From Methanobacteriota archaeon (GTDB taxonomy: Archaea > Thermoplasmatota > Thermoplasmata > Methanomassiliicoccales > UBA472), in the NCBI GenBank assembly GCA_021372315.1, contig JAJFUT010000065.1, positions 1,508 through 65,507 on the forward strand: DNA of 64,000 nucleotides, written 5' to 3'. Positions 5,012-42,311 of the stretch are shown piece after piece. The translations under genes and the position numbers were made by a program. The notes under the pieces are model-generated. The model saw nothing but the letters and a program-made list of their open reading frames with translations, was not told where the DNA came from and searched no databases. Position 1 is the first letter of the stretch, and each line of letters opens with the position of its first letter.

Positions 5012-5919
5012 TCTATCAGCTTCCTCCCCGTCAGTTTCAGGAACACGTCCTCGAGGGTCGCCTTCCTGATCGTCGTCGTGACGAGGCCGAACCTTTCCTT
5101 CATAATGAGGACTATGTCGTCGCAGCAGGCCGCATAGATCAGTAGCCTGTCGATGGTCCTCTCATGGTCCCATCCCTTCGACCTCACGAACGCCTCCATC
5201 TCGTCCGTGGGCTCGTCCATCTCGACGACCTCGCTGCCGATGACGTCCCTTATGAGGTCGGCCGGTCTGCCCTCGATGACGATCTTGCCCTTGTCCATGA
5301 TGACCAGCCGTTCGCAGAGCTTCTCCGCCTCGTCCATGTAGTGCGTCGTCAGGAGGACGGTGACGCCCTTCCTGCGCAGCTCCCGGATCCTTTCCCAGAT
5401 CAGATGCCTCGCCTGAGGGTCTAATCCGGTCGTCGGCTCGTCGAGTATCAGGACCTTCGGTTCGTTCATGAGCGCCCTGGCGATGATGAGCCTGCGCTTC
5501 ATCCCTCCCGAGATGTTCTCGACGTTGACATCCCTCTTCTCGGTCAGCTGCATGAACTCCAGGAGGTCGTCCGCCCTCTTCTTCGCGACCTTGGCGTCGA
5601 TATTGAAGTACCTGGCGTAGACTGTCAGGTTCTTGTGGACGGTGAAATCGGGGTCTAGGTTGTTGTCCTGCGGGGCCACACCGATGAGGTTCTTGATATC
5701 CCTCGGCCTCTCCTTGACGTCCATCCCGAGGACGGACAGCTGCCCGGACGTGATTGGGGAGGCGCAGTGTATCATCTTCATCGTGGTGCTCTTGCCGGCC
5801 CCGTTGGGCCCTAAGAAACCGAAGCACTCCCCCTCCTCGATGGCGAAGGCTATCCTGTCGACCGCGACGAACTCGTCGAACTTCTTCACCAGGTCCTTCG
5901 CTACGATGACGCTGCCCAT
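5008..5919 (-). CDS. ABC transporter ATP-binding protein (ABC-2/DrrA-like)
   Basis: Walker A GPNGAGKST, signature SGGMKRRL, Walker B LILDEPTTGLD. The ATG at 5919 (MGSVIVAKDL) is preferred to the extended ORF start at 6099. Confidence 0.9.
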   Translation of the reverse strand: MGSVIVAKDLVKKFDEFVAVDRIAFAIEEGECFGFLGPNGAGKSTTMKMIHCASPITSGQLSVLGMDVKERPRDIKNLIGVAPQDNNLDPDFTVHKNLTVYARYFNIDAKVAKKRADDLLEFMQLTEKRDVNVENISGGMKRRLIIARALMNEPKVLILDEPTTGLDPQARHLIWERIRELRRKGVTVLLTTHYMDEAEKLCERLVIMDKGKIVIEGRPADLIRDVIGSEVVEMDEPTDEMEAFVRSKGWDHERTIDRLLIYAACCDDIVLIMKERFGLVTTTIRKATLEDVFLKLTGRKLIE

Positions 5920-5982
5920 TGCCGGGAGTAACCGAATGTGAATATATTTTATGTAAGTAGGCTGAACGTAGTCGCACAATGA

Positions 5983-7608
5983 TTGCCCCGCGCCCCGGAT
6001 GGCCATGGCGTGCAGATAGAGACGGTGCTCCTCGTCATCGACATCTCCCTCCTCGGCGCAGCCCTGGGAGCCTTCACTGGTATCACCCCGGGCATACACG
6101 TCAACACGCTGGCGATGGGGGTCCTGATGGCATATCCGCTGCTGGGGAGCTTGATCGGGTCCTTGCTCGGAACGATCGGCATCGATCCCGGGCTGGCGCC
6201 ATTACTGCTCGCATGTCTTCTCATATCCGCCTCCGTCGTCCACAGCTTCCTAGACTTCATCCCGTCCGTGTTCTTCGGGGCTCCGGAGGAATCAGAGTCC
6301 CTATCGGTACTGCCTGGTCATCGCTTGCTGCTATCGGGGAGGGGGATGGACGCGATCTCATGCGCCGCCGGCGGGTCCCTCATCGGGGCGATGGCGGCGA
6401 TCTTCGCGTCCCTTCCGCTCATCCTCGCGATGGCCATGTTCCCGGACATGGTGGATAGAATAGATCCGTTCATACCCGGCCTGCTCCTATCCGCGACCTC
6501 GTTACTTTTGATGTCCCAGCGGGACCTGAAGGAAGCGGAGTGGTACATCAGGGTCCGAAGGACCTCCTTCGGGAGGATCGTGCTAGCTGGCCAACCAGTC
6601 CCTGTAGATGGCAGGGATGTCGCGCTGACGGGCATGGTCCAGAAGCGTGGTCTTGGACGTGTCATAACGACGCATACGGGCGAATGGCGTCTGAAGGGAT
6701 ATCATGGACAGGCGGACCTGCAAGTGACCGTCGAAGGGGTCTGGAAGATCAGAAGGGCACGGTGGAGGTCGAAGGCATTTGCGTTGCTGGCTTTCCTCCT
6801 GTCCGGATGGATCGGGTTCGCAGTAATGGAGGGACGTCCTTTCGGGGCGGAGCTTTTCGCAGGGTTCGACGGCAACCTTCTCTTCCCGATGCTTACCGGT
6901 CTGTTCGCCATCCCCTCCTTGATAGAATCCTCGTCTGGCGCCGGCATCCCCGAGCAGGAGATCGAGCCAAGGACAGATGCGGACATGTCCTCCTCGTTGA
7001 AGGGCGTGGGTGCCGGACTCTTCGCCGCGTGGGTGCCGGGCGTAACATCGACGGCGGGAACCGTTCTGGGAATGTCCGTCGGAGCCGGAAGGGAGGAGGA
7101 CACGGATACCTCGACCGAGCGGTTCATATCGATGTCCGCTTCGGTGGGAACGGCCGCACCCGTATTCGGCATCGCCGCGCTGACGATGACCGGCAGTGGG
7201 GGAACTGGTGTGCTCGTTGCCATCGACGACATGATGACCGGAACGGACATGTCATCTGACGCCGGCGTCAGGATGGGCGTGGTCGCCCTTTTCCTCCTGT
7301 CGGCCCTGGTGGCTTCGGTCCTTGGCTACATGCTCACCATGTGGTGCGGAAAACTTCTCGCCTCCAAGCTTTCGAACACCGACCCCTCCTCATCGTCCAA
7401 GGCGATCTTCGTGTTCGAGGTCGTGCTGGTCCTAATGCTGACGGGCATCCCCGGACTTCTGGTGCTCGCGGCATCGACGGTCGTTGGAATGTTGCCTCCG
7501 GCCGTCGGCGTGAGCCGCGTCTCTTTGACAGGGTGTCTGATCTTCCCTCTCCTGCTATCATACTCCGGCGGAGACCTGATCATCTCCGCTCTGCTCGGAG
7601 GGGCGTGA
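5983..7608 (+). CDS. TctA/DUF112-like integral membrane protein with an inserted soluble domain
   Basis: 541-aa ORF, highly hydrophobic. Two G-x-x-PG-type repeats (GITPGIHVNT near the N-terminus, AAWVPGVTST in the second half) recall the internally duplicated TctA family. The start is uncertain (ATG 5983 or GTG 6010). Confidence 0.5.
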   Translation: MPRAPDGHGVQIETVLLVIDISLLGAALGAFTGITPGIHVNTLAMGVLMAYPLLGSLIGSLLGTIGIDPGLAPLLLACLLISASVVHSFLDFIPSVFFGAPEESESLSVLPGHRLLLSGRGMDAISCAAGGSLIGAMAAIFASLPLILAMAMFPDMVDRIDPFIPGLLLSATSLLLMSQRDLKEAEWYIRVRRTSFGRIVLAGQPVPVDGRDVALTGMVQKRGLGRVITTHTGEWRLKGYHGQADLQVTVEGVWKIRRARWRSKAFALLAFLLSGWIGFAVMEGRPFGAELFAGFDGNLLFPMLTGLFAIPSLIESSSGAGIPEQEIEPRTDADMSSSLKGVGAGLFAAWVPGVTSTAGTVLGMSVGAGREEDTDTSTERFISMSASVGTAAPVFGIAALTMTGSGGTGVLVAIDDMMTGTDMSSDAGVRMGVVALFLLSALVASVLGYMLTMWCGKLLASKLSNTDPSSSSKAIFVFEVVLVLMLTGIPGLLVLAASTVVGMLPPAVGVSRVSLTGCLIFPLLLSYSGGDLIISALLGGA

Positions 7609-7609
7609 C

Positions 7610-8026
7610 GTGAGCGCCCCGATCTTCCACGCGTCCTTCGCGTTCGTCCTCTCCGTTCCGTTCCTTCGGCTGAGCGGCCTTCCGACGGAGATGGCGTTCT
7701 TTCCCGCGATCCTATCTATGATAATGGACCTGGATGCCAGCATCGCCCCCTCGGAAAGATACGAGAGCGCGTTCCATTCCCTCTGGGCCCTGCTCGCCGT
7801 CATGGCCCTCCCGCTCGCCGCCTCGATGCTATCGTTCGACACCTGCATAGCCTTCCTGCCGGCCATCGCGGTCCTCGCTCACCTGTTCCAGGACATCATC
7901 TCCGGAGAGCTCGACATCGGAGATTCGTTATACGGCATCGGCATGGCCTGGACGTTCATGCCGCGTCTGAGCAGGGCTTTGGACGTCGTCAGCCTGCCCC
8001 TTGTCCTCGTCCTCATGCTCCTCTAG
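7610..8026 (+). CDS. small integral membrane protein (possibly DUF457/YdjM-like)
   Basis: 138-aa hydrophobic ORF. The GTG start lies 1 nt after the upstream stop, suggesting translational coupling. Conserved-looking His/Asp positions (HLFQDIISGE). Weak assignment. Confidence 0.4.
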   Translation: MSAPIFHASFAFVLSVPFLRLSGLPTEMAFFPAILSMIMDLDASIAPSERYESAFHSLWALLAVMALPLAASMLSFDTCIAFLPAIAVLAHLFQDIISGELDIGDSLYGIGMAWTFMPRLSRALDVVSLPLVLVLMLL

Positions 8027-10173
8027 GTCAATATGGACCTCATCTTCTCGATGTCGTATCCGAACGGAGACAGCAGCTCGCTCGCCGCCCTCCTCACGAG
8101 GTCCGCGTAACGCGCGTCGTCATACGCCTCGTCCCCGTCTAGGAACTTCGCCGGCTTCGCCCTCCTGCCGTCGGCCAGTACGACGTACTCGATCATCTCG
8201 CCCGGCGGGACGCTGAAGCCCGCGGACTTTAGTGCCTTCAGCGCGTCGAGCGACTCGCTGCGGCGGGGCGCGTACTCCTCGACATCCTTCGAGACCCGCC
8301 TCGTGACGATGAGCTTGCTCAATGGCACCGCCCCGGACCGGAGGGATGATATGTACGTCTCCGGCACCTCAAGGAACTCGGGGATGCGTTCCCTGAACTC
8401 GACGGAATCCTCGCATCGGGACATCCGGTCCAGCATCTCCTTCTGCATCTCCTTGACGAGCTCGGGCGTATCGCCTTTGCGGAAGGCTATGCCCCTCAGC
8501 TTCATCTCCCCGCTCTCGAACGCCCCGTAGTACCGGTTCAGAGCCCCGACGCCAGTCGTCACGTTCGGAAGGAACACTATCCACTTGTACCTCCCTTCGA
8601 GCGCCAGCGGGATCCCGATCCTCCTAGACACGTCGGAGCAGAACGCGGCCGCGTCCCCCTCCCCCTCGAGCCACAACGAGTCGACTATGCCGTGCAGGAT
8701 GCCGAACCCCCTCGCCTCCGCCATCTCCGACGTCTGCACCATGATCTCCCTCCCGTAGGCGTTGATCGCCTCGTGGCATTCGATCCTTCCGAACCTGGCG
8801 TTGCGATAGCCAGTATATCCGAAGCAGGTCACGAGCACCCACTTGAGGGCCTTGGCCATCTGCGAGTACGCCGCCGCCCTTCGCCCGCCCTCCTTCGCCA
8901 GCCGCTTCAGCGCGAGACGTCTTTTTATGATCGGCCTCAGGACGATCGGGAGGAGCCCTTCCCTCTTCTCGCATATCCTGTAGTCTATGCCTGGTGCTAT
9001 CCTCCTGGAGTCAGGGCAGCAGTCGCACTTCAGGGTCTCGGGTGATATGTTGTGCACGACCATGATGCTCGGGTATAGCGACGCGAAGTCCACCTCGGTC
9101 ACGCCGTCGTGAATCCCGACCTTCGGCTCGTAGATGAACCCGCCCCTGTCCGACACGAGGAGGTCCCCTGCGGTCTTGAAGTCCTCAGGTAGGTTCTTCT
9201 TCCAGAGGACCAGCGTTCCTTGGCGGAGCGCCTCGTTGACCTGCATGGAACTGATGGCGGTGCCCGGGGAGTTCCTAGACATCTCCTGCAGGGACATCTT
9301 AGAGAGGCGGCTCAGATCGATTATCCCGCTCAGCCCCGACTCGTCGTACATGAACGAGCCGGCCGAGTCGATGTGCACCCTCCCTCGCATCTTGTGGGCG
9401 GGGGCCTTGTACACGATGCGGCCGTACGTGAAGTAGCTCTTGCCCTTCGCCTGGCGGAGCCCGGCGTCCCGTCCCAGCTCGAGCTTCATCCCGTAGAGGG
9501 AGGCGCGGTGTGCCAGGTAGTCCATGTAGAACCCGTCCCCGCCGTCGCTCACGATGACGTCCGGGTCGGAGGAGCGGGCGCACTTGACCAGTCGATCCAG
9601 GACACCCGCCTCGTCCCCTTCGATCCTTTCTTCGCCGAGCGTCACGCCCGCTATCGGGTCCTCGAGCGTCGGTATGCGGTTCGCCGCCCTGACGTCAACC
9701 TTCAGCTCGCTGATCCTCAGGTCGGGGAGGGGGTAGTCCAGACGCCACGGGGTGTCCAGATGCCGGTACCGTCCGTCGTACTCCAGCAGCCCCATCGGGA
9801 AGAGCCCGTGGGACATGTAGTATCGGAGGTCCATGCGCAGGTCGACGTTGAAGAGCTTATAGTCCCTGTAGAGGCCCCAGCGGTCGATGCTGCGGGCCAT
9901 TGTCATCAGCTCGTGGTACGACGGAGGCACTATGCGAAGCACCTTCCTCTCCTTCTCCCCGAGCCACGTCCTCCTTCTCTCCTCGGTGCTTTCGATGCCG
10001 GCGATCCGCAGGGCGGACCTGAGGTCGTCCTCCTTGTCCCTCGGGGCCCATGCGTAGAACGCGGGCCTGAAGTTCCTCTCGACGATGCGCTCGGTGCCGG
10101 ACCTCGTCCTCAGCCAGATGACCATCGAGTCGTCGGTGTTGTCCGGGTAGCAGTCAATGATCCAGCCCCTCAT
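8023..10173 (-). CDS. family-B DNA polymerase homolog with degenerate exonuclease and polymerase motifs (PolB2-like, probably inactivated or weakly active)
   Basis: Pol motif A is intact (VDFASLYPSIM). Motif C reads HGIVDS instead of YGDTDS. Motif B is degenerate (KWVLVTCFGY). Exo I/II positions are ISE and DGFYMDYL instead of DIE and NFDFPYL. The ATG at 10173 (MRGWIIDCYPD) is preferred over the ORF start at 10299. Confidence 0.85.
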   Translation of the reverse strand: MRGWIIDCYPDNTDDSMVIWLRTRSGTERIVERNFRPAFYAWAPRDKEDDLRSALRIAGIESTEERRRTWLGEKERKVLRIVPPSYHELMTMARSIDRWGLYRDYKLFNVDLRMDLRYYMSHGLFPMGLLEYDGRYRHLDTPWRLDYPLPDLRISELKVDVRAANRIPTLEDPIAGVTLGEERIEGDEAGVLDRLVKCARSSDPDVIVSDGGDGFYMDYLAHRASLYGMKLELGRDAGLRQAKGKSYFTYGRIVYKAPAHKMRGRVHIDSAGSFMYDESGLSGIIDLSRLSKMSLQEMSRNSPGTAISSMQVNEALRQGTLVLWKKNLPEDFKTAGDLLVSDRGGFIYEPKVGIHDGVTEVDFASLYPSIMVVHNISPETLKCDCCPDSRRIAPGIDYRICEKREGLLPIVLRPIIKRRLALKRLAKEGGRRAAAYSQMAKALKWVLVTCFGYTGYRNARFGRIECHEAINAYGREIMVQTSEMAEARGFGILHGIVDSLWLEGEGDAAAFCSDVSRRIGIPLALEGRYKWIVFLPNVTTGVGALNRYYGAFESGEMKLRGIAFRKGDTPELVKEMQKEMLDRMSRCEDSVEFRERIPEFLEVPETYISSLRSGAVPLSKLIVTRRVSKDVEEYAPRRSESLDALKALKSAGFSVPPGEMIEYVVLADGRRAKPAKFLDGDEAYDDARYADLVRRAASELLSPFGYDIEKMRSILT

Positions 10174-10414
10174 GGGAAGCAGCCTTCCTGAGCGCGGCCA
10201 GCTCCTTTTCCTGCTCGAGAAGCATCGACAGGACCGCCCCCTCGAAGGGATCGTTGAACATGGCGTACGTCGAGGCGGACGCGTGCATCCTGATCCCATT
10301 CACCATGTGGTCGAACATATCCCTATCTTCCTTCGGGAGCGCCCGCCTGAAATCGTTCCAGCTCTGTATCATCGACTCGGCGGTGTTCCTGTACGTCGGG
10401 ACGGTCCTACCCAT
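10154..10414 (-). CDS. 86-aa helical protein of unknown function, translationally coupled between the RadB-like and PolB-like genes
   Basis: The ATG overlaps the RadB-like stop by 8 nt. Its own 3' end overlaps the PolB-like start by 20 nt. No recognisable motif. Confidence 0.5.
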   Translation of the reverse strand: MGRTVPTYRNTAESMIQSWNDFRRALPKEDRDMFDHMVNGIRMHASASTYAMFNDPFEGAVLSMLLEQEKELAALRKAASHEGLDH

Positions 10415-11135
10415 CGATCTCCCTCCAGTACTCGTCGAGGGTCGTCTGGTTCCGGGGCACTGGACGATAGAGCATGCCGACGCCCTCCCTCGGGAGGGTC
10501 AGCTTCACGGCCGGCCCCTTTCCCTCGATGCGCACCACGCGGTCAGCGCTGTCGTAGAGCAGCGGTTTCAGCCCTTTCCTGTAGACCATCTTCGACATGC
10601 CGTAGTTCGTCACCACGGTGATGAGCCCGTTCTCGTTCGTAAGCTGGCGGAGCCGGTCCATCGCCCGCTTCATCAGCTGCAGGGACTCGGCCCAGTTCAT
10701 GTCCGCGTCCTGGAAAAGGTCGGGGAAGCAGGATATGACGACCAGCCCCGTCCCTATGCGCCTCACCTCGGGGTCCAGCATGTCCTCGATCAGCGTGGAC
10801 ATCTGGTACGCCGTGAAGGCCCTCGAGACGGTGATGTTGTGCAGCACCTCCTCAGGGTTCATGCGGTGGCGCTTGCAGATGGCGCTCAGGTCGTAGGGGT
10901 TGACGGAGTTCCCGCCGTCTATCCAGAGCACCTGCTCGTGCATCTCCGCGACGGCGTTGAAGCAGTAGAGGTTGACGAGCTCGAAGACCATGCGGTCGGA
11001 GCTGTCTATGAGTGTCACGGTGCCCGGAGCGAGGCCCCCCAGCATCGCGTCCACCGGCGGAAGTGACGTCCCTAGGGAGCGGCAGCGCTCCATCGCCCCC
11101 GCTATGGCGTCGCGGGTATGGCTCTCCGTTTCCAT
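10407..11135 (-). CDS. RadB/RecA-fold protein lacking Walker A and Walker B (inactivated RadB paralog)
   Basis: Shows RadB-like segments: VDAMLGGLAPGTVTLI, VLWIDGGNSVNPYDL and RMNPEEVLHNITVSRAF. The P-loop position reads DSSDRMVF instead of GxxGxGKT. The Walker B position reads VVISC instead of hhhhD. The ATG at 11135 is preferred because a TATA-like box lies at 11179-11186. The ORF is open to 11225. Confidence 0.65.
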   Translation of the reverse strand: METESHTRDAIAGAMERCRSLGTSLPPVDAMLGGLAPGTVTLIDSSDRMVFELVNLYCFNAVAEMHEQVLWIDGGNSVNPYDLSAICKRHRMNPEEVLHNITVSRAFTAYQMSTLIEDMLDPEVRRIGTGLVVISCFPDLFQDADMNWAESLQLMKRAMDRLRQLTNENGLITVVTNYGMSKMVYRKGLKPLLYDSADRVVRIEGKGPAVKLTLPREGVGMLYRPVPRNQTTLDEYWREIDG

Positions 11136-11178
11136 GTATGTGAATTCCACGGCCTCACCGCGCATGTCTCGGCTTGTC

Positions 11179-11186
11179 GATATAAA
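11179..11186 (-). promoter_or_regulatory. putative TATA box for the RadB-like/PolB-like operon
   Basis: TTTATATC on the minus strand, about 45 nt upstream of the ATG at 11135. Confidence 0.35.
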
Positions 11187-11252
11187 GCGGTGAAGGTGAG
11201 GGGTTGCCGAAAGTGGGCCAGGCATCGGCCAGTATGTGCGTCTCTTGATAAC

Positions 11253-11263
11253 TTTTGTATATC
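11253..11263 (+). promoter_or_regulatory. putative TATA box for the beta-CASP nuclease gene (near-leaderless)
   Basis: TTTTGTATATC centred ~28 nt upstream of the ATG at 11286. Confidence 0.3.
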
Positions 11264-11285
11264 TGCCGAACGATAGGCGAGTTCC

Positions 11286-12311
11286 ATGGAAGGGGATGCG
11301 CTCACCGTCAGGATCGGCAACGGGATCGAGGTGACGGGAGAGAACTTAGGATGTCACCTTGACCCGAGGAGCCTGTCGTCAAAGGACATGCTCCCCAACG
11401 GCGTCTTCTGCACGTCCCACGCGCATTCGGACCACATCCCTACGAAGTACGAGAGGAAGGGCGAGAACCGCGTCATGAGCACGGAGTTCACGAGGCGCTT
11501 CATCTCCGAGGTCAAGGGCAAGGAGCTCCTTCCGCAGGAGCATCCGAACGTCACGATGCACAATGCCGGGCACGTCACTGGATCGGTCATGTTCGAGATC
11601 GACGTCGGCAAGAAGGTCCTCTACACCGGGGACTTCTGCACGAGGGACAGGTTCAGGATCGAAGGGGCGAGACCCCGCAAGGTCGACTATCTGATCATGG
11701 AGTCCACGTACGGTCGGCCCGAGTACGTCTTCCCCCCGACGGAGGGGATGCTCAAGGTCATGAAGGACTGGATCGAGGACAGCCTCGCGCAGAACTTTTC
11801 CGTCGTCCTTTTCACGTCATCCAACCTCGGAAAGACGCACGAGCTCATCCACGCGCTGAAGGACTTCGGTCCGCACGTGCACGGAACGATATCGGGGACG
11901 AGCCGCATCCTTCAGAAGTGCGGGCTGGAACTAGATTACCTGGAGGACGACCACTGCGGCTCCGACGACCCCTTCGTCCTCATCGGAGCTAACAACCAGC
12001 GCGCCATGGCGGACATAATGCAGAGCCATAAGGGCGTCAGGCGGATGCGCAAGGCGTCCGTGACCGGATGGGTGGTCGGGACGCGCGACGTCGGCAGGAG
12101 CAGGAGGTACGGGATGGACGAGGCGTTCGCGATATCGGACCATTCGGACTACAACGAGCTCCTCGAGTTCGTGAGGAAGTGCTCGCCGGAAAAGGTGTTC
12201 TTGGAGCACGGCTACTCGGTCGAGATGGCTGAGAGCATAAGGCGGGAGCTAGGCATCGAGGCCTGCCCCGTTCCTAACCCGAAGGGGCAGCAGTCCCTGA
12301 TGAACTACTGA
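11286..12311 (+). CDS. small metallo-beta-lactamase / beta-CASP nuclease (SNM1/Artemis- or CPSF-like, ~340 aa)
   Basis: MBL motifs SHAHSDH, NAGHVTGS and YTGDF. beta-CASP motifs ESTYG, ISDHSD and LEHG. Confidence 0.8.
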   Translation: MEGDALTVRIGNGIEVTGENLGCHLDPRSLSSKDMLPNGVFCTSHAHSDHIPTKYERKGENRVMSTEFTRRFISEVKGKELLPQEHPNVTMHNAGHVTGSVMFEIDVGKKVLYTGDFCTRDRFRIEGARPRKVDYLIMESTYGRPEYVFPPTEGMLKVMKDWIEDSLAQNFSVVLFTSSNLGKTHELIHALKDFGPHVHGTISGTSRILQKCGLELDYLEDDHCGSDDPFVLIGANNQRAMADIMQSHKGVRRMRKASVTGWVVGTRDVGRSRRYGMDEAFAISDHSDYNELLEFVRKCSPEKVFLEHGYSVEMAESIRRELGIEACPVPNPKGQQSLMNY

Positions 12312-14482: not shown

Positions 14483-16069
14483 TCAATCGCCTCCGAAGAA
14501 GCCGCGCAGCACCGGGTGCATCTCCATCATCTGTTCGCGGCCTATCGCCTCGTAAAGATGGATCATTATACCCACGGCTAGCAGCACACCTGTTCCTGAC
14601 GCGTTACCTACGGTCCCTACCAGGTCCGCTCCTGCTGCGAGCGCCCCCACGGTGAAACCGCTGATGACCGTGACGATCGGGATGTACCTCTCGAGCACGC
14701 GCTTGAGCACCCGCGGGTCACGCCTGAACCCTGGGATCTGCAGTCCTGAGGACTCGATCTGCCTCGCCACCTGCTCCGGTCCCATGTTCGTGGTCATGAT
14801 CCAGAACTTGGCGAACAGCACGGAACCTATGACCATCACGCCGAAGTAGACAAGCACGCGCACCATTATCTGCAGCCCGGTATGGTCCGTGGCCAGATAT
14901 CCGTACGAGTCCGAGTTGATCATCGGCAGGAGCCAGCTGTACAGACCTTGCGGTGCTGAAAGATACCATGCCATGCCGGCCTCCGGAGAGGTCGACCCTT
15001 CAGGGAAGTATCCCAGCATCCAGTTGCCCCCGAGCAACGGTATTCCGGACAACGTTTTGTTGCTATACAGCAGCAGCGTCACCATCTGAACGTTCGCGAG
15101 CAATGCGGCCATCAGGATGACCGGGATGTTGGACGCGTAGATGAGCTTGATCGGGTATCTGCCCCTTGCGCCCCTGGCCGTGCCATGGGCCAATGGTAGC
15201 TCGATCCTCACCGACTCGATCCAAGCCACGAACATGAATATCGCTATCGTTCCGACAAGCGCCACGATCGGGTTGGGCGGCTGGAACAGTATCTGTTCGT
15301 AACCTCCGGTCACAAGGCCGGAGGACGAAGTGTTTTGGATGATGTAAAGGGTTTTAGGTATCGCCCCTGCGGGAAGATTGCTGGAGCTGATCGCCGCCGA
15401 AGAGTCCGTGCCCTCCCAGTTAATGGTACCGGTCACGAGCGCCTGTGCGACACCGGCCGCGATGAAGAGAGATATTCCGCTCCCTATCCCCCACTTCGAA
15501 ACCACTTCGTCCATGAGGAACACTATGTACGAGCCTATGAACAGCTGAGCGATGATTATGAGCCTCGCGGCCGCCAGGCCGTCGAACCAACCATCGCCGC
15601 CGAACACTCCGTCCATCCCGTTGATGAACGTCGTTGAAGGCTCGAGGTAGCCGAACACCTGCGGCACCGCCTCGACTATGATCATCACTATGACCAGGAA
15701 CTTCTGTGTGCTCTGGTATACAGCCTTGTCATCCTTGTTCGTCAGGTCCAGCTTGATGATCTGTGCCCCGACGAAGAGCTGCATGATGATCGAAGCCGTC
15801 ACTATCGGACCTATGCCCAATTGCATCAGCGAGCCTGACGCACCGGCCAGGATGGCACGGTACTGGGCGAACATGTCTACGGTCGCGCTCTGGTCGAGAC
15901 CATACAGATACACGTTGGTCATCACGAAATACAGTACTAGTATTACGATGACCCATAGCATCTTGGTCCTAAAGTGGACATGGCCATCCGGCTTTTTCAC
16001 GGCCGGGAGCCTGTCGGTTAACGGTTTCAGCTTATACAGCCGGCTCCTTCTCTCTTCCGCCATCTCCAT
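14483..16069 (-). CDS. secY: preprotein translocase subunit SecY
   Basis: 528 aa, about 10 TM segments, SecY-like throughout. Conserved position after rpl15. Confidence 0.95.
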   Translation of the reverse strand: MEMAEERRSRLYKLKPLTDRLPAVKKPDGHVHFRTKMLWVIVILVLYFVMTNVYLYGLDQSATVDMFAQYRAILAGASGSLMQLGIGPIVTASIIMQLFVGAQIIKLDLTNKDDKAVYQSTQKFLVIVMIIVEAVPQVFGYLEPSTTFINGMDGVFGGDGWFDGLAAARLIIIAQLFIGSYIVFLMDEVVSKWGIGSGISLFIAAGVAQALVTGTINWEGTDSSAAISSSNLPAGAIPKTLYIIQNTSSSGLVTGGYEQILFQPPNPIVALVGTIAIFMFVAWIESVRIELPLAHGTARGARGRYPIKLIYASNIPVILMAALLANVQMVTLLLYSNKTLSGIPLLGGNWMLGYFPEGSTSPEAGMAWYLSAPQGLYSWLLPMINSDSYGYLATDHTGLQIMVRVLVYFGVMVIGSVLFAKFWIMTTNMGPEQVARQIESSGLQIPGFRRDPRVLKRVLERYIPIVTVISGFTVGALAAGADLVGTVGNASGTGVLLAVGIMIHLYEAIGREQMMEMHPVLRGFFGGD

Positions 16070-16086
16070 CCCCTAGCAGTTCCGAA

Positions 16087-16524
16087 TTACTGTGGCTGGA
16101 GGATATGTCCGCCGGATTCTTCAACCTTCTGCTTCGCAGTCTCGGTGCAATCTGCTACCAGGACCTCCACGGCGACCGTGATCTTCCCGGAACCCAGGAG
16201 CTTGTCCACGCCCATCTTGACGAGATCGACCTTGATGGCCTTCCCTTCCTTGACAGCGTAACCGTCCTTCATCATGGTTTCAAGGTTCTCTTGAAGGTCG
16301 CTCACGTTCATCGTGATCTTCGCGGAGACCATCTTCTGTGGGCGCTTGAACCCGTGGCGGCCGAAGTGGTCTGGCATGTACTTCAGCATGTGCATGGCCT
16401 TGTGCTTGTGCAGACCTGCGTTACCCACACCTCCATGCTTGCCTCCTCCACGCCCGCTCTTCTTGCCGCGTCCGTGGGTCCTTGAGCCTCTGAACTTATC
16501 GGTCTTGCTAACCATTATTTTCAC
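16087..16524 (-). CDS. rpl15: 50S ribosomal protein uL15
   Basis: N-terminus SRTHGRGKKSGRGGGKHGGVGNAG, and operon position. Confidence 0.9.
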   Translation of the reverse strand: MKIMVSKTDKFRGSRTHGRGKKSGRGGGKHGGVGNAGLHKHKAMHMLKYMPDHFGRHGFKRPQKMVSAKITMNVSDLQENLETMMKDGYAVKEGKAIKVDLVKMGVDKLLGSGKITVAVEVLVADCTETAKQKVEESGGHILQPQ

Positions 16525-16537
16525 CCATCCTTCAGTT

Positions 16538-17002
16538 TCACATCATCCTTTGGATGAGGTCGTCGATCTTCACGCCGCGGTATCCGAGGGCGCCGCCGTT
16601 CTTGAACGAGTACTTGATCCCCTTGTATCCCTTGCGGGGCGGGGTAAGCCTGAACAATGGCTTGACGTCCTTCAGCTCGGTGTACCTTATCTCTCCCTTG
16701 TTGACCGCCTTGGCGAACGACAGGATCGAGGTGAACGAGCTGCCTGCCTTGACGATCTCGTCATCGATCGGCTTGTCGCCCACGAGCCTGCCCCTGAACT
16801 TTATCATGCGGGCGAGGGTCTCGTCAGAGACCTCTCCCCAGGTGACGTAGTCCTTTGCCTTGTTGAGCATGCCCTTCACCGAGTCGGTCTCAGGGAGGAC
16901 GACGCAGTGGTTGATGCGCGTCAGCGACATCAACTTCATCGTGTCCTCGATGTCCTGGTTGACACCGGAGTGCCCCCTGACCCTTATGATTGCATATGCC
17001 AT
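16538..17002 (-). CDS. rpl30: 50S ribosomal protein uL30
   Basis: MAYAIIRVRGHSGV N-terminus, size and operon position. Confidence 0.9.
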   Translation of the reverse strand: MAYAIIRVRGHSGVNQDIEDTMKLMSLTRINHCVVLPETDSVKGMLNKAKDYVTWGEVSDETLARMIKFRGRLVGDKPIDDEIVKAGSSFTSILSFAKAVNKGEIRYTELKDVKPLFRLTPPRKGYKGIKYSFKNGGALGYRGVKIDDLIQRMM

Positions 17003-17006
17003 AGGT

Positions 17007-17693
17007 TCACTCCTCCTTCTTTAGATCGGCCATAGGATTCTGTTCGGCTATGTGGACCATGACCGGTCCGGAGACGATCTTCAGCCTGCGCTCCTGCTCC
17101 TCGGTCACACGGAACGAGGAGGAGGCCTTCAGCGCGTTGAACGTCGCATAGGCGTAGTTGACGGTCGTCTTGGTGTGTCCGCCGACGAATCCCCAGCTGT
17201 CCTTGACACCCGCTAGGGTGAGGATGCTCTTGGCCACGTCTCCGACCGCGAGCGAGACGCCGCGCGGCGCGGGCTTGAGCGTCACTTCGACGCTTCCAGA
17301 CTTACCGGTCACTTCGAACGGCACGGAGTGCGGCGTTCCGCATCCGCATTCCCAGGAGCCGCAGCCGCGCTTGATCTCGATCATGTGCAGCTTCGCGTTG
17401 TCGATCGCCTTCCTGATGGAGGGACCGACCTCCTTGCCCTTCGCCCTGCCGATCCCGACGAACCCGTCGCCGTTCCCGACGACGACGGTGATACGGAACT
17501 TGACCCTCCTTCCGGAGTCTGTCATGCGCTGGACGATGTTGACGTCGATGACCTCGTCCTTGAGGTCCGGCAAGAGGATATCCACAATCTCAGGCTCCCT
17601 GATCGGCAACTTTGTGGCCAAAGCCTGGCTCATCGAGGTGATCTCTCCGTTGAGGACCATCCTTCCCAATCTGGTCTTCGGGCTCCAATCCAT
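17007..17693 (-). CDS. rps5: 30S ribosomal protein uS5
   Basis: Sequence similarity to S5 ([22 protein letters not shown]). The ATG at 17693 lies directly after the rpl18 stop. The ORF is open to 17744. Confidence 0.9.
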
Positions 17694-17694
17694 C

Positions 17695-18195
17695 TCAGTC
17701 AGCCTCCATGCGGGTCTTGATATCGTTAACGAGTTTCGCGACATCGTCTCCGATGTGCTTGCCTACGAGCCTGTCCTGGGAGGGTATGACCTCTTCGCCG
17801 TGCGGGATGTCCACACCGGCGTCGACCATTCCCTTCAGGGCAGCGAAGACACATGATCCCTTCGCCGGCACCTTCAGTCCGATGTCCAAGACAGCGGAGT
17901 CGATGCCCTTGCCCTTCGCCCTCTTTCCGATCAGATAGCCGGTGAGGTAGGCGGCCGGAAGGTTTCCGCAGGCCTTGTCCCATCCCATCTCCGCTAGCTC
18001 GCGGGAGTGGGCGGTCACAAGGACCTTGTCGCCCTTCGGGTCGTAGTCTATGAGCTGAATGCTCACGTTCCTGAGGCTGACGCGCACGACCGCCCTCGGA
18101 ACGCGCGCACGGAGCAGCCTGGCTCTCTGCCTATAGTCGGTCCGGCCCTCGCGCCGGCGCCTGAACGGTACTTTGTATCTCGGTCCGGTTGCCAT
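17695..18195 (-). CDS. rpl18: 50S ribosomal protein uL18
   Basis: [19 protein letters not shown]-terminus and operon position. Confidence 0.9.
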
Positions 18196-18650
18196 CAGAT
18201 TTCCTCCTTCAGGTGACCTTGCGTCCTCAGGTGCAGGAGAAGCTGGCGCTTGCTCCTGAACATTCCACCCTTGGCCTTCCTATAGAATAGCCGGTAGGTC
18301 GACCGGGAGATCTTGCCCTCTTCCTTCAGTTCGCGCAACGTCGCGCGGATCGGCCTGATGGTCTGGATCCATCTCTTCTTGGTCGGGGTACGCGCTCCGG
18401 CGGCACCCTTTCTGCTGCCCTGTCCACGCCTGCGGCCCTTGGCCCTCTGCGCCAGCTTGTACCTGGCGCGGCCACGGGAAACGCCCTTCTCGGGCTTTGC
18501 GCGGATGGACCCGGAATCAATGGCCTTCCTTATGTCAGCCCGGGTAATGGCGTCAGCGACGTCATCGATGCGGTTCGGGTCTATCCAGACCCTGCTGAAC
18601 CCGCAGCCGAGTATGTCAGCCGCCATGCGCTTCTGGTTCTTAAGATCCAT
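18195..18650 (-). CDS. rpl19e: 50S ribosomal protein eL19
   Basis: MDLKNQKRMAADILGCG N-terminus, basic C-terminal tail, operon position. Confidence 0.9.
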   Translation of the reverse strand: MDLKNQKRMAADILGCGFSRVWIDPNRIDDVADAITRADIRKAIDSGSIRAKPEKGVSRGRARYKLAQRAKGRRRGQGSRKGAAGARTPTKKRWIQTIRPIRATLRELKEEGKISRSTYRLFYRKAKGGMFRSKRQLLLHLRTQGHLKEEI

Positions 18651-18662
18651 ATGTTCACGTCC

Positions 18663-19331
18663 TTATCTGTTGAGTACGCGGACACCTATCTCGTCCGCCT
18701 TTGAAATTATGTCCTTCCTCTTCTTCGCGCCGACGGTGCCTCCGATCCTGGCGGCCTGCAGCTTGGCGTCCAATGCATCGAGCTGGGATGGGTTGAACAC
18801 CATGACCTCCTCGAATCCGGACGGATGCAGTCCACGGACCATCAATGGGCCGCGGAATCCGATCGAGACGATCGTGGGGCGGTAGCCATAGTGGCGGCGC
18901 ATCTTGCTGTGTATTCCGCGCGGCTTCCTCCACTTTCCCTCGAGCTTCTGGTAGCGGTGCCACTCCTGGCGTAGGAACGGTGGCCTCCTGTCGTTGATCT
19001 CGTCGCGGAGCTCGAGCATGGCCTTCATCTCCTTGGAGAGTTCCGGCTTGATCTTGGCGACGTATTCGCCCTCCTCGACGACCTCGGCTCCCTTTCCCTC
19101 CATCGCGGCGGGAGAGAATCCAGCGTCCTTGAGGACCTCTATCCAGTGGTCTGCGATCTTCTCGCCGACACCGTCGAGGTCATCGACGATCCTCTTCTTC
19201 ATCTTCTCGTCGTTCAAGGCATCTTGCAGCTGCTGGAGGTCCTCGATCTCCATGCCCTTCAGCTGCTCGGTGTACTCTTTCCTGTAATAGGGCAGGTCGG
19301 AAAGCTCTTTGACATCCTTCTTCCTAGCCAT
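18663..19331 (-). CDS. rpl32e: 50S ribosomal protein eL32 with ~90-aa N-terminal extension
   Basis: The C-terminal ~130 aa is L32e-like (FLRQEWHRYQKL ... KPRGIHSKMR). The N-terminal part is acidic and helical with an HhH-like DGVGEKIADH segment. Confidence 0.85.
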   Translation of the reverse strand: MARKKDVKELSDLPYYRKEYTEQLKGMEIEDLQQLQDALNDEKMKKRIVDDLDGVGEKIADHWIEVLKDAGFSPAAMEGKGAEVVEEGEYVAKIKPELSKEMKAMLELRDEINDRRPPFLRQEWHRYQKLEGKWRKPRGIHSKMRRHYGYRPTIVSIGFRGPLMVRGLHPSGFEEVMVFNPSQLDALDAKLQAARIGGTVGAKKRKDIISKADEIGVRVLNR

Positions 19332-19879
19332 TACTTAGCCCTCCTTGCCTTCTCGACGATGTAAATTCCATCCTGGAACACCCTTGGGTCGAAGTTCTTG
19401 ATCTTCGTGGCCCTCTCGATGTTCGCGGCGGACTGCGACACGGCCTCCAGGTCTATTCCAGAGACCAGCACTTCCGCACCCTTCACCACGACCTTGGTGT
19501 CGCCTATGATGTTGGCGGACCTGGCAGCCTTCTCCCCGAGGAAGTTCTCAATGATGAACTTGTTCCCCTTGGCGGCGGCCTTTATCGGGAAATGGGAGTA
19601 GACGACCTTCATCTCATACTCGAAACCGAGGGATACGCCCTCGATCATGTTCGAGATATGCGATGCGAAGGTTCCGACCATGGCCTTCTCCTTCACTCTC
19701 GGCATATCGCAACTGACGACGACGTGCTCCTTGTCCACCTTCACCTTGACGCTCATGTGGTCGAAGTCGCGTGTAAGGGATCCGTTCTTTCCCTTGACCG
19801 TCAACTTGGTGCCTGCCATGGTGACGTGGACGTCCTTCGGGACCTCAACCTTCTCTTCAACGTGTCCTGAAACTGTCAT
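19331..19879 (-). CDS. rpl6: 50S ribosomal protein uL6
   Basis: L6-like two-domain sequence. The ATG at 19879 lies downstream of the rps8 stop. The ORF is open to 19927. Confidence 0.9.
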   Translation of the reverse strand: MTVSGHVEEKVEVPKDVHVTMAGTKLTVKGKNGSLTRDFDHMSVKVKVDKEHVVVSCDMPRVKEKAMVGTFASHISNMIEGVSLGFEYEMKVVYSHFPIKAAAKGNKFIIENFLGEKAARSANIIGDTKVVVKGAEVLVSGIDLEAVSQSAANIERATKIKNFDPRVFQDGIYIVEKARRAK

Positions 19880-19889
19880 CCTATTCACC

Positions 19890-20279
19890 TCAGTAGACGT
19901 AGGCCAGCAGTTTTCCGCCGACCCCAAGCTCCTTCGCCTTCGCGTGACTGATCACGCCTGCGGTGGTGGAGACGATGATCACGCCGAAGTCCTGCGCGGG
20001 CAGGTATCTGGCCTCGAACCTCTCCAGGTCCACCTTCTTGACGGAGTAGCGCGGCTTAATGACGCCGCAGTTGTTGATCTTGCCTTCCATCTTCACTTTG
20101 AAGACTCCAGCTTTTCCATCCTCTACGAACTCGAACTGGTTGATGTAACCGTTCTCTTGCATGACCTTAAGGACACGCCCGATAAGCTTCGAGGAGGGCT
20201 TGATGATGCACTCGCTCTTGCCTACCACGGACGCGTTCTTGATCGTTGACATGGCATCGTTCAATGGGTCGCTCTGCAT
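19890..20279 (-). CDS. rps8: 30S ribosomal protein uS8
   Basis: [14 protein letters not shown]-terminus and operon position. Confidence 0.9.
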
Positions 20280-20288
20280 CTGCTCACC

Positions 20289-20435
20289 TCATGAATATTT
20301 CTTAAATCCGATCTGCGGAGCGATCTCGCGGAAGCACTGCCTGCACAAGTGCATGCCATACCTCCTGACTATGCCCCTCTTCCTACCGCAGCGCGTGCAG
20401 CCCTTTGACCGCCCGAACTGTTTCTTTGGCTTCAC
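20289..20435 (-). CDS. rps14: 30S ribosomal protein uS14 (zinc-binding short form, 48 aa)
   Basis: Not in the ORF track because it is shorter than 60 aa. My translation: (GTG)[47 protein letters not shown]. CxxC...CxxC motif present. The GTG overlaps the rpl5 stop (GTGA). Confidence 0.85.
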
Positions 20436-20944
20436 TCGACCACCTCCACCTTGAACTTCTCTTTCATGAAGTTAGCCGCGTCCTGTCTGGACATACGGTG
20501 GCTCTTGGGGAGCTTCTTCTTCATGATCCTTCTGAGCGCGACCCTGCGACCAGGCCTCTCGATACAGACGCTGACGTCCATACCGAATATGCCGATCTCG
20601 GGGTCGTACTTCATGCCTGCAAAGTCAGTGTAATCGCTGATGCCGAAGGACAAGTTGCCCTCTGGGTCGAATGAATACATCTGGACCCTGTTCTCGCGGA
20701 TGGCGAGGGCCTTCACGAGGAAGGTCTCCGCCTTATCCTTGCGAAGGGTGACCATGCATCCGATGGGCATTCCCTCACGCACGCCGAGGTCCCTGTTGGT
20801 GACCTTGGCGATCGTGACCCTCGGCTTCTGACCGGTGACCATCTCGAGGACCTTCTGGGCCTTGACGAGCCTGTCACCCGCTTCGCCGACGCCGATGTTG
20901 ACGACGACCTTCTCCACGCGCGGCTGCCTCATGACGTCGCTCAT
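20432..20944 (-). CDS. rpl5: 50S ribosomal protein uL5
   Basis: L5-like sequence and operon position. Confidence 0.9.
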
Positions 20945-21651
20945 AATGCGCTCGCCTCCGGTAGCAGGACCTCAGGCGCCTTCATCCCGACGACGAAGAC
21001 GTTCTCCTTGATCGTAATAACACCGTCCTTCATCTTGACCAGGTTCGGGGCCGAGGACCTCTGTACGATGTATTCCTCGATGACCCCGATCTCTCCAGCG
21101 TGGCTTCCTCCTAGGATCAGCGCCACGTTGCCCTTCGCAAGCTTGTAGGTGTCCAAGATCTTCTGGGACGGCAGCTCCATCTTGATGACGTCTCCACACT
21201 TCCAGGAGTCCTTCTCAACGATGAGGGACCTTCCGTCGTTCAGGTTCAGCTGGACCTTTCCTCCGGAGAGTATGGTCTTGCCGTCGATGCGGCACAGCTT
21301 CCACTTCTCCCTTCCCTCGGTCAGAGGGACGAGGCGGAACTTGCCTTTCCTGTCCAACATCATCCTGTAGCTCTGGTTCATCTTCGGTATGGACACGACG
21401 TCCATCAGACCGACGGCGAACCTTTCCTCTGTCACGATCCTCCCGTCCACAAGTATCTCGCGGCCGGACAGGATCTTCTTCCCTTCGGCGTACGTGTCGC
21501 AGATGTGCAACATGTCACGTATGATGACCATCAATGACATGCTCGTCTGCTTGTCGTGCGCACCTGGGTTTGTTCCCGTGATCCAAATCGTCTTCTTACG
21601 GGGAATTGCCCAGGTCTTCGGGGCCGTCAATCTCTTCATGTCGCTGCTCAT
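20941..21651 (-). CDS. rps4e: 30S ribosomal protein eS4
   Basis: MKRLTAPKTW motif with S4e-like KOW region. The ATG at 21651 overlaps the rpl24 stop (ATGA). The ORF is open to 21690. Confidence 0.9.
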   Translation of the reverse strand: MSSDMKRLTAPKTWAIPRKKTIWITGTNPGAHDKQTSMSLMVIIRDMLHICDTYAEGKKILSGREILVDGRIVTEERFAVGLMDVVSIPKMNQSYRMMLDRKGKFRLVPLTEGREKWKLCRIDGKTILSGGKVQLNLNDGRSLIVEKDSWKCGDVIKMELPSQKILDTYKLAKGNVALILGGSHAGEIGVIEEYIVQRSSAPNLVKMKDGVITIKENVFVVGMKAPEVLLPEASAL

Positions 21652-22022: not shown

Positions 22023-22031
22023 TTTCTCACC

Positions 22032-22765: not shown

Positions 22766-22769
22766 AAGA

Positions 22770-23030: not shown

Positions 23031-23036
23031 GGGTCC

Positions 23037-25193: not shown

Positions 25194-25199
25194 CTACTT

Positions 25200-25907: not shown

Positions 25908-25917
25908 GTCACTCCCC

Positions 25918-26975: not shown

Positions 26976-26978
26976 TTA

Positions 26979-41526: not shown

Positions 41527-41528
41527 GT

Positions 41529-42308: not shown

Positions 42309-42311
42309 CGT

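Follow-up and report, generated by a model that had tools for sequence, protein, structure and literature searches.

Do a family-B polymerase and a RadA-like protein that have both lost canonical catalytic residues, encoded with an 86-aa ORF and divergently from a β-CASP nuclease, form an uncharacterised DNA damage/repair module, as the initial annotation proposed, or do they belong to a known system? In the window, the 64,000-nt stretch of DNA analysed here, positions 8023-11214 (minus strand) very probably constitute a type 1a PolB2 'mutasome' operon (iRadA-PPB2-PolB2) from an uncultured Methanomassiliicoccales-like archaeon, which encodes a damage-tolerance extender polymerase and two helpers. 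Operons of PolB2, arCOG07300 (PPB2) and an inactivated RadA were reported in 2013-2014 (Makarova, Krupovic & Koonin 2014), and a heteropentamer model of the complex was built in silico in 2025 (Timinskas, Timinskas & Venclovas 2025). The operon is a further example of this described system; the proposed module is indeed discrete and linked to DNA damage, but it is not uncharacterised. Type 1a accounts for 1375 of the 1823 catalogued operons, with Methanomassiliicoccus among them (Timinskas 2025).

The three minus-strand genes are chained in the order iRadA-PPB2-PolB2. The iRadA gene (10407-11150, 247 aa) overlaps the 86-aa ORF (10154-10414) by 8 nt (ATGGGTAG, 10407-10414), which in turn overlaps the PolB2 gene (8023-10173, 716 aa) by 20 nt (10154-10173). 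These coordinates and overlaps agree with the initial annotation, with the exception of the RadA-like start, which most likely moves from ATG 11135 to GTG 11150 because relatives carry ATG at the codon aligned with the latter; the codon aligned with 11135 is CTA in two related loci (L004 and L001). We keep the polymerase start at 10173 (MRGWIID) since M1, G3, W4, D7 and Y9 are invariant among homologs. GC3 was scored for three of the ORFs (PolB-like, RadA-like and nuclease) and is 0.87 in each, versus 0.34-0.55 in shadow ORFs. The neighbourhood survey suggested in the initial annotation recovers iRadA, PPB2 and PolB2 together in ~70 of the 80 genome loci examined, across archaeal phyla and in lineages that include Thermoplasmata, Methanoperedens, ANME-1, Theionarchaea and Bathyarchaeia. 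In pairwise comparison, PPB2 and iRadA resemble their Sulfolobus counterparts weakly or not at all, which counts against the assignment, but all of the sequence hallmarks of PolB2 operons that we tested are present: the MGRTVPTYR arm, the IVD motif C, FKTA followed by DR, a Walker-less iRadA and the QTTLDEYW tail.

The operon promoter (11179-11214, minus strand) consists of ACTTTC (11209-11214), a 22-nt C-rich spacer and the TATA box TTTATATC (11179-11186). The pattern ACTTTCR-N16-24-TTTATA has one match in the window, at this promoter, and none in 100 shuffles. Among 6-mers ahead of iRadA, ACTTTC ranks first (36 of 62 loci, across lineages, versus ~3 expected), and a logo of these upstream regions places the TATA box at +27/28. 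Where the operon is split, the ACTTTC-TATA module recurs ahead of PPB2 or PolB2, and in related loci XPD, XPB and HARP genes, as well as some β-CASP genes, have it upstream too. In S. acidocaldarius, the same hexamer functions as a UV-response element of upsE, and it fits the Orc1-2 site ANTTTC; induction of Sulfolobus dpo2 by NQO depends on Orc1-2. The promoter hexamer is identical to this damage-response element, whose function has been shown in Sulfolobales only, and probably has a comparable role here. The ACTTTC-22 nt-TATA module in the PolB2 operon promoter, conserved across lineages, is new in this analysis. An orc1/cdc6 gene was not found among the scanned window ORFs.

On the opposite strand, the β-CASP metallo-nuclease (11286-12311, plus strand, 341 aa) is a real ORF, as first annotated, with all catalytic motifs intact: HAHSDH, H96, D116, E139, H286 and H308 are conserved across 22 homologs. 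What reads as its own TATA-like element, TTTTGTATATCT (11253-11264, plus strand), lies 22 nt ahead of the ATG and aligns with A/T-rich elements of L001 and L004, so the description of a 'single' TATA-like box at the locus, right about the box at 11179-11186, is not quite correct in its number. The predicted structure (AF2 pLDDT 88) matches the folds of CPSF73/aCPSF1 and SNM1A/Apollo, and the top family match is TIGR04122 (108 bits, cutoff 325).

It is possible, though rather unlikely, that the nuclease is a working partner of PolB2 in a four-gene module, co-regulated through the shared divergent promoter region; its role might be that of a 5′ exonuclease like SNM1A/Apollo, making gaps ready for the extender polymerase. 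All four of the four β-CASP homologs chosen blind to context have a PolB2 operon within 5 kb, and the family seems to be restricted to a Methanomassiliicoccales-like Thermoplasmata clade. ACTTTC lies between both TATA boxes in the window, and where the nuclease is far from iRadA (L007/L011/L019, L084, L085) it carries its own A[CG]TTTCGA-N~21-TATA module, but this motif is degenerate in L003, L006, L008 and L013. Likewise, SNM1A/Apollo are of comparable fold and size and the top-scoring family is a DNA-damage exonuclease, yet the RNA-cleaving CPSF73/aCPSF1 are an even better fold match, and the substrate may be DNA or RNA. A β-CASP gene lies near the PolB2 operon only in this clade, within a larger conserved block (Cbf5…TctA), and is absent within 10 kb of the operon in ~60 loci of other lineages; RMMBL is outside the 20 commonest neighbour domains of the 1823 operons, with Lactamase_B in 54. 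Within the clade the nuclease abuts Cbf5, and 0.15-7.5 kb of variable, unrelated genes separate it from iRadA. The transporter TctA is equally conserved as a neighbour, so that synteny alone accounts for the adjacency. Because the gene is absent from PolB2 loci of other lineages and the inserts vary within the clade, we do not regard the nuclease as a fixed partner. It is rather a clade-specific neighbour outside the core operon, a separate transcription unit that could share the operon's damage regulon.

Within the three-gene operon, the polymerase was rightly recognised as PolB2-type: it matches Pfam DNA_pol_B (3e-28) and NCBIfam NF004416 (509 bits, cutoff 516), aligns with S. islandicus PolB2 (35% identity over 222 aa, E 1e-39) and has homologs at 47-87% identity in Methanomassiliicoccales and other Thermoplasmata. 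In alignments with P. abyssi PolB, motif A (DFASLYPS, 9067-9090, minus strand; DFRSLYPS in P. abyssi) keeps the catalytic Asp362, which is invariant in the 10 homologs compared. Motif B (KWVLVTCFGYTGY, 8806-8844, minus strand, aligned to KILANSYYGYYGY) keeps Lys444 with NSxYG changed to TCFG; its residues are family-invariant, and the NS to TC change might weaken dNTP binding. In motif C (HGIVDSLW, 8671-8694, minus strand) the canonical DTD has become I496-V497-D498, which aligns with IID in S. islandicus PolB2; 'IVD' is also given for Thermoplasmata and haloarchaeal PolB2 (Timinskas supplement).

These losses underlie the proposal that both large proteins are pseudo-enzymes and the trio a DNA-binding complex with a structural or regulatory rather than a catalytic role, for instance at stalled forks or in replication initiation. 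PolB2 has indeed lost its exonuclease residues together with the leading Asp of motif C and the motif B NS, and ATPase motifs are missing from iRadA; inactivation was also the view in publications of 2008-2014, which raised a possible connection with arORC2 and the initiation of replication. Asp362, Lys444, Asp498 and the entire palm region, however, are invariant in homologs at 50-80% identity, which fits a conserved active site. The S. islandicus and S. solfataricus enzymes (Dpo2), with the same xxD motif C, are robust polymerases that have no exonuclease activity, do not proofread and extend mismatched or lesion-paired primers, and Timinskas et al. consider the inactivation prediction erroneous. 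Since these relatives polymerise, PolB2 is by current evidence not a pseudo-enzyme, its family members acting as exonuclease-less translesion extenders, and a wholly non-catalytic trio is quite improbable. The verdict of inactivation holds for iRadA only.

This second protein matches Pfam Rad51 (3.4e-9) and is a RadA/Rad51 paralog without the N-terminal domain. Its Walker A motif has changed from GxxxxGKT to DSSDRM-V and its Walker B Asp to Ser; judged by these motifs, it is catalytically dead. The initial annotation of a 'P-loop-less RadB' was right about the P-loop, but a score of 23 bits against TIGR02237 (cutoff 172) rejects RadB. The C-terminal QTTLDEYW (10425-10448, minus strand) reads as a PIP-box-like motif and, from its position and consensus, is a putative PCNA contact; many loci share Q-T-T-L-D-E-[FY] at the end of iRadA, and clamp-binding motifs have been reported chiefly in iRadA (Timinskas 2025). 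The adaptor role first suggested for the small ORF (minus strand) is borne out by its identity as PPB2 (arCOG07300 / Pfam DUF8156), a small helical subunit that is a trimer in the literature model. PF26485 is found in all 120 PPB2 homologs listed, and the N-terminal MGRTVPTYR, an MGRT arm including Arg3 and Arg9, is kept in ~70 loci. In the AF2 monomer, helices span residues 8-25, 28-48 and 56-82, and the N-terminal arm is free. Upstream of motif A, PolB2 carries F332-K-T-A335, a literal FxxA, then D342-R343 (9145-9180, minus strand), all six residues being invariant in 10 homologs. D342-R343 corresponds to D253-K254 in the S. islandicus protein, and the stretch preceding this DK is a Rad51-oligomerisation-like motif in the published model (Timinskas 2025); FKTA is by position and consensus a putative iRadA-binding stretch, and the region is also predicted to make the contact with the PPB2 arm.

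A reading of the polymerase gene as part of an integrated mobile element (casposon, provirus or plasmid remnant) rather than of the host is so improbable that we dismiss it: archaeal mobile elements often carry family-B polymerases, but here GC and GC3 equal those of adjoining housekeeping genes, the chromosomal context (r-protein cluster, SecY, Cbf5 ... TctA) recurs in many genomes, neither an integrase or Cas1 nor terminal repeats were observed, and the polymerase groups inside the cellular PolB2 clade.

The type 1a operon would work as follows. One promoter would give a single, probably leaderless iRadA-PPB2-PolB2 transcript, with the ACTTTC ahead of the TATA box probably making it inducible by damage, and the stop/start overlaps would couple translation of the three ORFs. 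Going by published models and by biochemistry done in Sulfolobus, the products would assemble as one PolB2, one iRadA and three PPB2, with the FKTA stretch docking on the dead RadA paralog in mimicry of RadA-RadA filament contacts, one PPB2 placing its arm close to the active site and the iRadA tail tethering the complex to PCNA. With a working non-canonical site (Asp362, Lys444, Asp498) and no proofreading, PolB2 would serve as an extender in translesion synthesis, the divergent nuclease being present through clade-level synteny.

When compared to known type 1a operons, the window operon has the same gene order and tight coupling, and shares the MGRT arm, xxD motif C, DK/DR, dead RadA paralog and PIP-like iRadA tail. 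It differs from known PolB2 operons in its surroundings: it lies between a Cbf5/ribosomal cluster and TctA, beside the β-CASP nuclease, rather than near orc1/cdc6, SRAP or DUF72. Sulfolobus/Saccharolobus Dpo2 belongs to the same clade, with the 35% identity spanning palm and fingers, an Ile-x-Asp motif C and no exonuclease site, but its N-terminus is shorter, the stretch before DK is LRRL, and the Sulfolobales operons run PPB2-PolB2-iRadA (type 3a). Only there have activity and induction been demonstrated. The Sulfolobales ANTTTC/ACTTTC element, bound by Orc1-2, likewise lies upstream of the BRE/TATA of the PolB2 operon and of repair genes; here the hexamer occurs in Thermoplasmata, Methanoperedens, Halobacteriota MAGs and Bathyarchaeia and, unlike the Sulfolobales element, at a fixed 22-nt C-rich distance from the TATA box. 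The euryarchaeal RadB resembles iRadA in its short RadA-like core without an N-terminal HhH domain, but keeps its Walker motifs. The nuclease shares the MBL + β-CASP fold and metal-binding motifs with the bacterial ligase-associated DNA-damage exonuclease (TIGR04122), SNM1A/Apollo and CPSF73/aCPSF1, and the ~330-aa KH-less architecture with TIGR04122 and SNM1A, whereas it scores under the TIGR04122 cutoff and has no ligase, Lhr or PdeM neighbour. Finally, the predicted complex can be likened to the E. coli Pol V mutasome (UmuD'2C-RecA) and eukaryotic Pol zeta as a lesion-tolerance polymerase bound to a RecA/Rad51-family protein, the likeness extending to a filament-interface mimic, a small-subunit N-terminal arm near the active site and a sliding clamp. 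Pol V is a family Y enzyme and PolB2 family B, and in the archaeal complex the RadA paralog is permanently ATPase-dead and the three-helix trimer that serves as small subunit is unrelated.

The initial annotation took the three minus-strand genes, with the nuclease, to look most like an uncharacterised module, but the operon family is already in the literature. Makarova, Krupovic and Koonin (2014) predicted an operon of PolB2, a helical arCOG07300 protein of ~90 aa and inactivated RadA paralogs, which is found across archaea and in some bacteria. Timinskas et al. (2025) renamed the two partners PPB2 and iRadA, catalogued 1823 operons (1375 of them of type 1a, with the same iRadA-PPB2-PolB2 order as the window), and modelled a PolB2:iRadA:PPB2x3 heteropentamer, with Methanomassiliicoccus examples among the models. 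The window genes are adjacent, lie on one strand and recur together, as in the described mutasome operon. Recurrent co-occurrence of a PolB2-like gene, a small ORF and a RadB-like gene, which was to be expected of a discrete module, is observed in our survey of 80 PolB2 loci sampled at one genome per species: with the window proteins as tblastn queries, PolB2 is immediately preceded by iRadA and PPB2 in ~70/80 loci, including those of Thermoplasmata, Methanoperedens, ANME-1, Theionarchaea, Halobacteriota MAGs and Bathyarchaeia. By gene content and order, the window trio adds a member to an operon family that is already well described. The earlier reading was right in that the module is damage-related and combines a PolB2-type polymerase with a dead RadA paralog and a small adaptor. 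As one more example from an uncultured archaeon in a family catalogued in ~1800 genomes, the operon itself changes little; only its promoter module and apparent regulon go beyond the literature that we searched.

ORF listing and direct reading of the sequence bear out the chained arrangement on the minus strand, in which iRadA (10407-11150) is followed by the 86-aa PPB2 gene (10154-10414) and by PolB2 (8023-10173), whose start at MRGWIID is backed by N-terminal residues that are invariant in homologs. The claimed overlaps are present, with 20 nt shared between PPB2 and PolB2 and 8 nt between iRadA and PPB2 (ATGGGTAG). The divergent beta-CASP nuclease gene occupies 11286-12311 on the plus strand. 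GC3 is 0.87 in the PolB-like, RadA-like and nuclease ORFs versus 0.34-0.55 in shadow ORFs, and this contrast marks the three as real genes; the 86-aa ORF was under the length cut-off of the scan. The ATG at 11135 originally proposed as the start of iRadA is not supported by alignment of the upstream region, in which the codon matching GTG 11150, five codons upstream, is ATG in relatives, while that matching 11135 is CTA in L004 and L001 (L numbers denote PolB2-bearing loci from other genomes, with coordinates counted within each locus). On this alignment, iRadA probably begins at GTG 11150. A longer, 272-aa iRadA ORF from 11225 would start upstream of the promoter. The TATA-like box described as the only one is present at 11179-11186 (TTTATATC), but the nuclease gene has a TATA-like element of its own at 11253-11264, and both genes look leaderless.

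The nearest relatives of the source genome are Methanomassiliicoccales. Much of the remaining window (14483-28000, 40753-46031 and 47281-53323) is housekeeping, with SecY and a ribosomal-protein cluster, a block of exosome RNase PH, SBDS and proteasome-alpha genes, and FtsZ. There is also an HdrA-like flavoprotein of 1013 aa, with the small and large subunits of a hydrogenase encoded after it, a set typical of Methanomassiliicoccales energy metabolism.

The two small partners show the features expected of the family. The N-terminus of PPB2, MGRTVPTYR, matches the conserved "MGRT" arm, Arg3 and Arg9 included, and its AF2 monomer has a free N-terminal arm and three helices. PF26485 (Pfam DUF8156) is annotated in 120/120 listed PPB2 homologs and was seen through these annotations, as a Pfam search with the 86-aa ORF itself returns only a sub-threshold DUF6809 match. 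In L003, L081-L085 and L087, T-G-R-T replaces M-G-R-T at this terminus, which points to initiation at a non-canonical codon or a few codons further upstream. iRadA (247 aa) is without an N-terminal domain and matches Pfam Rad51 at 3.4e-9. Its Walker A motif reads DSSDRM-V in place of GxxxxGKT and the Walker B Asp is replaced by Ser; judged by these residues, the protein is catalytically dead. The RadB identity first assigned to it fails, as it scores 23 bits on TIGR02237 against a cutoff of 172 and has lost the GKT. The C-terminus, QTTLDEYW, is PIP-box-like, and the core Q-T-T-L-D-E-[FY] is kept at the iRadA C-termini of many loci. No such motif was found in PolB2, which agrees with the published mutasome analysis of Timinskas et al., where clamp-binding motifs are mostly on iRadA. 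BLASTP of iRadA against S. islandicus iRadA gives no match, and that of PPB2 against the Sulfolobus protein matches through the N-terminus only, consistent with the reported extreme divergence of both.

The initial annotation regarded both large proteins as pseudo-enzymes. This stands for iRadA with its replaced Walker motifs, but not for PolB2, whose Sulfolobales kin with the same Ile-x-Asp motif are active; the inactivity inference corresponds to the pre-2020 view. PolB2 matches Pfam DNA_pol_B and scores 509 bits on the NCBIfam "type B DNA polymerase" model, slightly below its cutoff of 516. It falls in the PolB2 clade, and its motif C has another residue in place of the leading Asp of DxD: I496-V497-D498 pairs with DTD in the PolB of P. 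abyssi and with IID in S. islandicus PolB2, to which the protein is 35% identical over 222 aa (E 1e-39). Asp362 of motif A and Lys444 of motif B are kept, with NS replaced by TC in motif B. The proofreading exonuclease site is missing (Exo II Asp to Tyr), the family consensus shows no conserved DxE, and the match of the N-terminal region to the exonuclease Pfam model is weak.

Purified Dpo2 enzymes of S. islandicus and S. solfataricus share this Ile-x-Asp motif and polymerise robustly without proofreading. Their copying of undamaged DNA is faithful, and they are efficient at extending primer ends that are mismatched or paired with a lesion. The dpo2 gene is the sole damage-induced polymerase gene in its Sulfolobales host, with induction dependent on Orc1-2. 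Within the PolB2 family, polymerase activity and damage-inducible expression are known only for Sulfolobales Dpo2. By analogy with these assayed members, none of which is euryarchaeal, the window PolB2 is probably active as a polymerase, and this is supported by Asp362, Lys444, Asp498 and the palm around them, all of which are strictly conserved. D342-R343 aligns with the D253-K254 motif of S. islandicus PolB2, and a literal, invariant FxxA (F332-K-T-A335) lies 7 residues upstream of it. In the model of Timinskas et al. (2025), the stretch before DK is a Rad51-oligomerisation mimic that docks on iRadA; the FKTA stretch is its predicted iRadA-binding counterpart.

A mobile-element origin of the PolB gene was considered and rejected. 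Replicative PolB3, which occurs in all archaea except Thaumarchaeota (Makarova 2014), was likewise discarded as an identity, the exonuclease and polymerase motifs of the protein being degenerate; the scanned window ORFs include no further family-B polymerase. In a second Thermoplasmata clade (L081-L083, L085 and L087), PolB2 is longer, at ~899 aa against 716 aa. In BLAST, coverage of these proteins (P0069-P0120) is just 63-73%, implying an insertion of ~180 aa, and one cluster of them (P0109) has an intein Pfam hit.

When the divergent intergenic region is aligned with those of relatives, a block of yACTTTCR, a C-rich spacer and TTTATA is conserved. In the window, 22 nt separate ACTTTC from the TATA box that follows it, and the composite (11181-11214, minus strand) occurs once and is matched in 0/100 shuffles. 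Across dereplicated loci, ACTTTC is the most frequent hexamer upstream of iRadA (36/62, where 2.3-2.9 would be expected and shuffles or random windows reach 8 at most), with the antisense hexamer in 5 loci and the TATA box peaking at +27/28 from the motif. The module reaches several archaeal phyla. Where the operon is split, the PPB2 or PolB2 unit has a module of its own, as in L001 (9691-9724), L004 (9692-9725), L014 (9696-9729), L064 (~9680), L069 (~9930), L075 (~9920) and L033; that of the second unit in L056 reads AGTTTC. The insert that splits the L004 operon holds zinc dehydrogenases, an HTH_10 protein and a DUF6326 protein and no repair gene. A second extended ACTTTC match in the window (25196, plus strand) is judged to be chance, since it has no TATA box and lies among family-less ORFs in what is probably the antisense of ribosomal-protein genes.

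A relaxed form of the composite has 44 matches across 1.4 Mb of loci. Of these, 27 immediately precede an operon gene (iRadA, PPB2 or PolB2) and another 5 are located upstream of the beta-CASP gene. Among the others, several stand directly in front of genes for XPD (L029:13223-15157, minus strand), XPB (L057:1-975, minus), two HARP-domain proteins (L026:14995-15480 and L034:3284-3751, both minus) and a GyrI-like protein (L024:220-687, plus), which sit near the PolB2 operons of other Thermoplasmata and Methanoperedens. Their upstream modules hint at a damage regulon.

The beta-CASP nuclease (341 aa) is real, as had been proposed, and intact: it has MBL motifs 1-4 and beta-CASP motifs A-C, and 22 homologs keep HAHSDH, H96, D116, E139, H286 and H308 with little or no variation. 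Foldseek with its AF2 model (pLDDT 88) matches RNA-type CPSF73/aCPSF1/FttA at E ~1e-15 and, at similar size, DNA-type SNM1A/Apollo at E ~1e-11 (TM 0.64-0.68), and thus gives no separation between the two. The best family match is TIGR04122, the bacterial ligase-associated DNA-damage exonuclease, of which positions 29-319 of 326 are covered, but at 108 bits against a cutoff of 325. Unlike TIGR04122 genes, which cluster with ATP-dependent ligase, Lhr helicase and PdeM, the window family is without such neighbours. Its neighbours in every locus examined are instead Cbf5 and iRadA, or a KaiC-like ATPase. A literature search on this small beta-CASP family returned nothing. The family seems confined to this Thermoplasmata clade. 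Its members are candidates for a new factor in the processing of lesions in archaea.

As a fixed operon partner, a role suggested by its position in the window, the nuclease does not hold up. Only Methanomassiliicoccales and the second Thermoplasmata clade, the one with the ~899-aa PolB2, have it near the PolB2 operon, and it is not within reach in any of ~60 PolB2 loci from other lineages. RMMBL is likewise outside the 20 most abundant neighbour domains of the 1823 operons in the catalogue of Timinskas et al., where Lactamase_B counts only 54. The gene is always part of a larger conserved block that comprises the ribosomal cluster, SecY, EMC3, CMP kinase, Cbf5 (convergent with the nuclease and usually abutting it), the nuclease, a variable stretch, iRadA-PPB2-PolB2, TctA and a PRTase. 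The nuclease-iRadA gap ranges from 0.15 kb in the window to 7.5 kb and is filled with unrelated genes. In L011, a Methanomassiliicoccaceae genome, a 1026-aa ORF without a Pfam match (5668-8748, minus strand) takes up most of a 5-kb gap, which holds unknown proteins and no repair gene. In the second Thermoplasmata clade (L081:5917-8754, minus strand; L082, L083, L085, L087; L022:2-2266), a protein of ~950 aa is encoded between the nuclease gene and iRadA, just upstream of the nuclease and on its strand. It combines a membrane region at the N-terminus with a long coiled coil and, at the C-terminus, a KaiC-like ATPase with DUF7504. Neither the window nor the Methanomassiliicoccales loci have this gene. 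On the other side of the operon, a 138-aa hydrophobic ORF without a family match (7610-8026, plus strand) follows directly after TctA (5983-7608), converges on PolB2, whose stop codon it overlaps by 4 nt, and is kept in L003 and L004.

The nuclease could nevertheless be a co-regulated partner of the operon, a reading that we consider possible but doubtful. The operon lies within 5 kb of 4/4 nuclease homologs picked regardless of context, but TctA is an equally faithful neighbour, so synteny by itself explains the adjacency. The window ACTTTC is situated between the two TATA boxes, 22 nt from that of iRadA and 38 nt from that of the nuclease, and is inverted relative to the nuclease gene. In three lineages in which the nuclease is far from iRadA, it has its own sense A[CG]TTTCGA-N~21-TATA module with TAAATA or TTTATA (L007 ~8660, L011 ~4010 and L019 ~2600 in one lineage; L084 ~9945; L085 9914-9946), although the homologous position is degenerate in L003, L006, L008 and L013. 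These motif placements suggest that nuclease and operon may be under shared regulation.

For the operon itself, we infer damage inducibility from the conservation of the module and from its identity with the Sulfolobales element. A full-text literature search returned no report of an ACTTTC element outside Sulfolobales, and no orc1/cdc6 gene was found among the scanned window ORFs. The broadest reading, which we put forward tentatively and think unlikely to hold in full, is that ACTTTC-N22-TATA would be a pan-archaeal damage promoter homologous to the Sulfolobales Orc1-2 element, driving an SOS-like regulon outside Crenarchaeota (PolB2 mutasome, XPD, XPB and HARP), with the beta-CASP nuclease recruited in Methanomassiliicoccales-like Thermoplasmata as a lineage-specific, SNM1A-like partner of the extender. 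A sharply defined module common to PolB2 operons and XPD/XPB/HARP genes across several archaeal phyla offers a testable way to ask whether a transcriptional response to damage is conserved beyond Sulfolobales. In S. acidocaldarius, mutation of ACTTTC abolishes the UV-inducible upsE promoter, and the Orc1-2 footprint in S. islandicus is ANTTTC. The ACTTTC of the window is the identical hexamer to that of the Sulfolobales Orc1-2/DDRE element and is likewise placed upstream of BRE/TATA.
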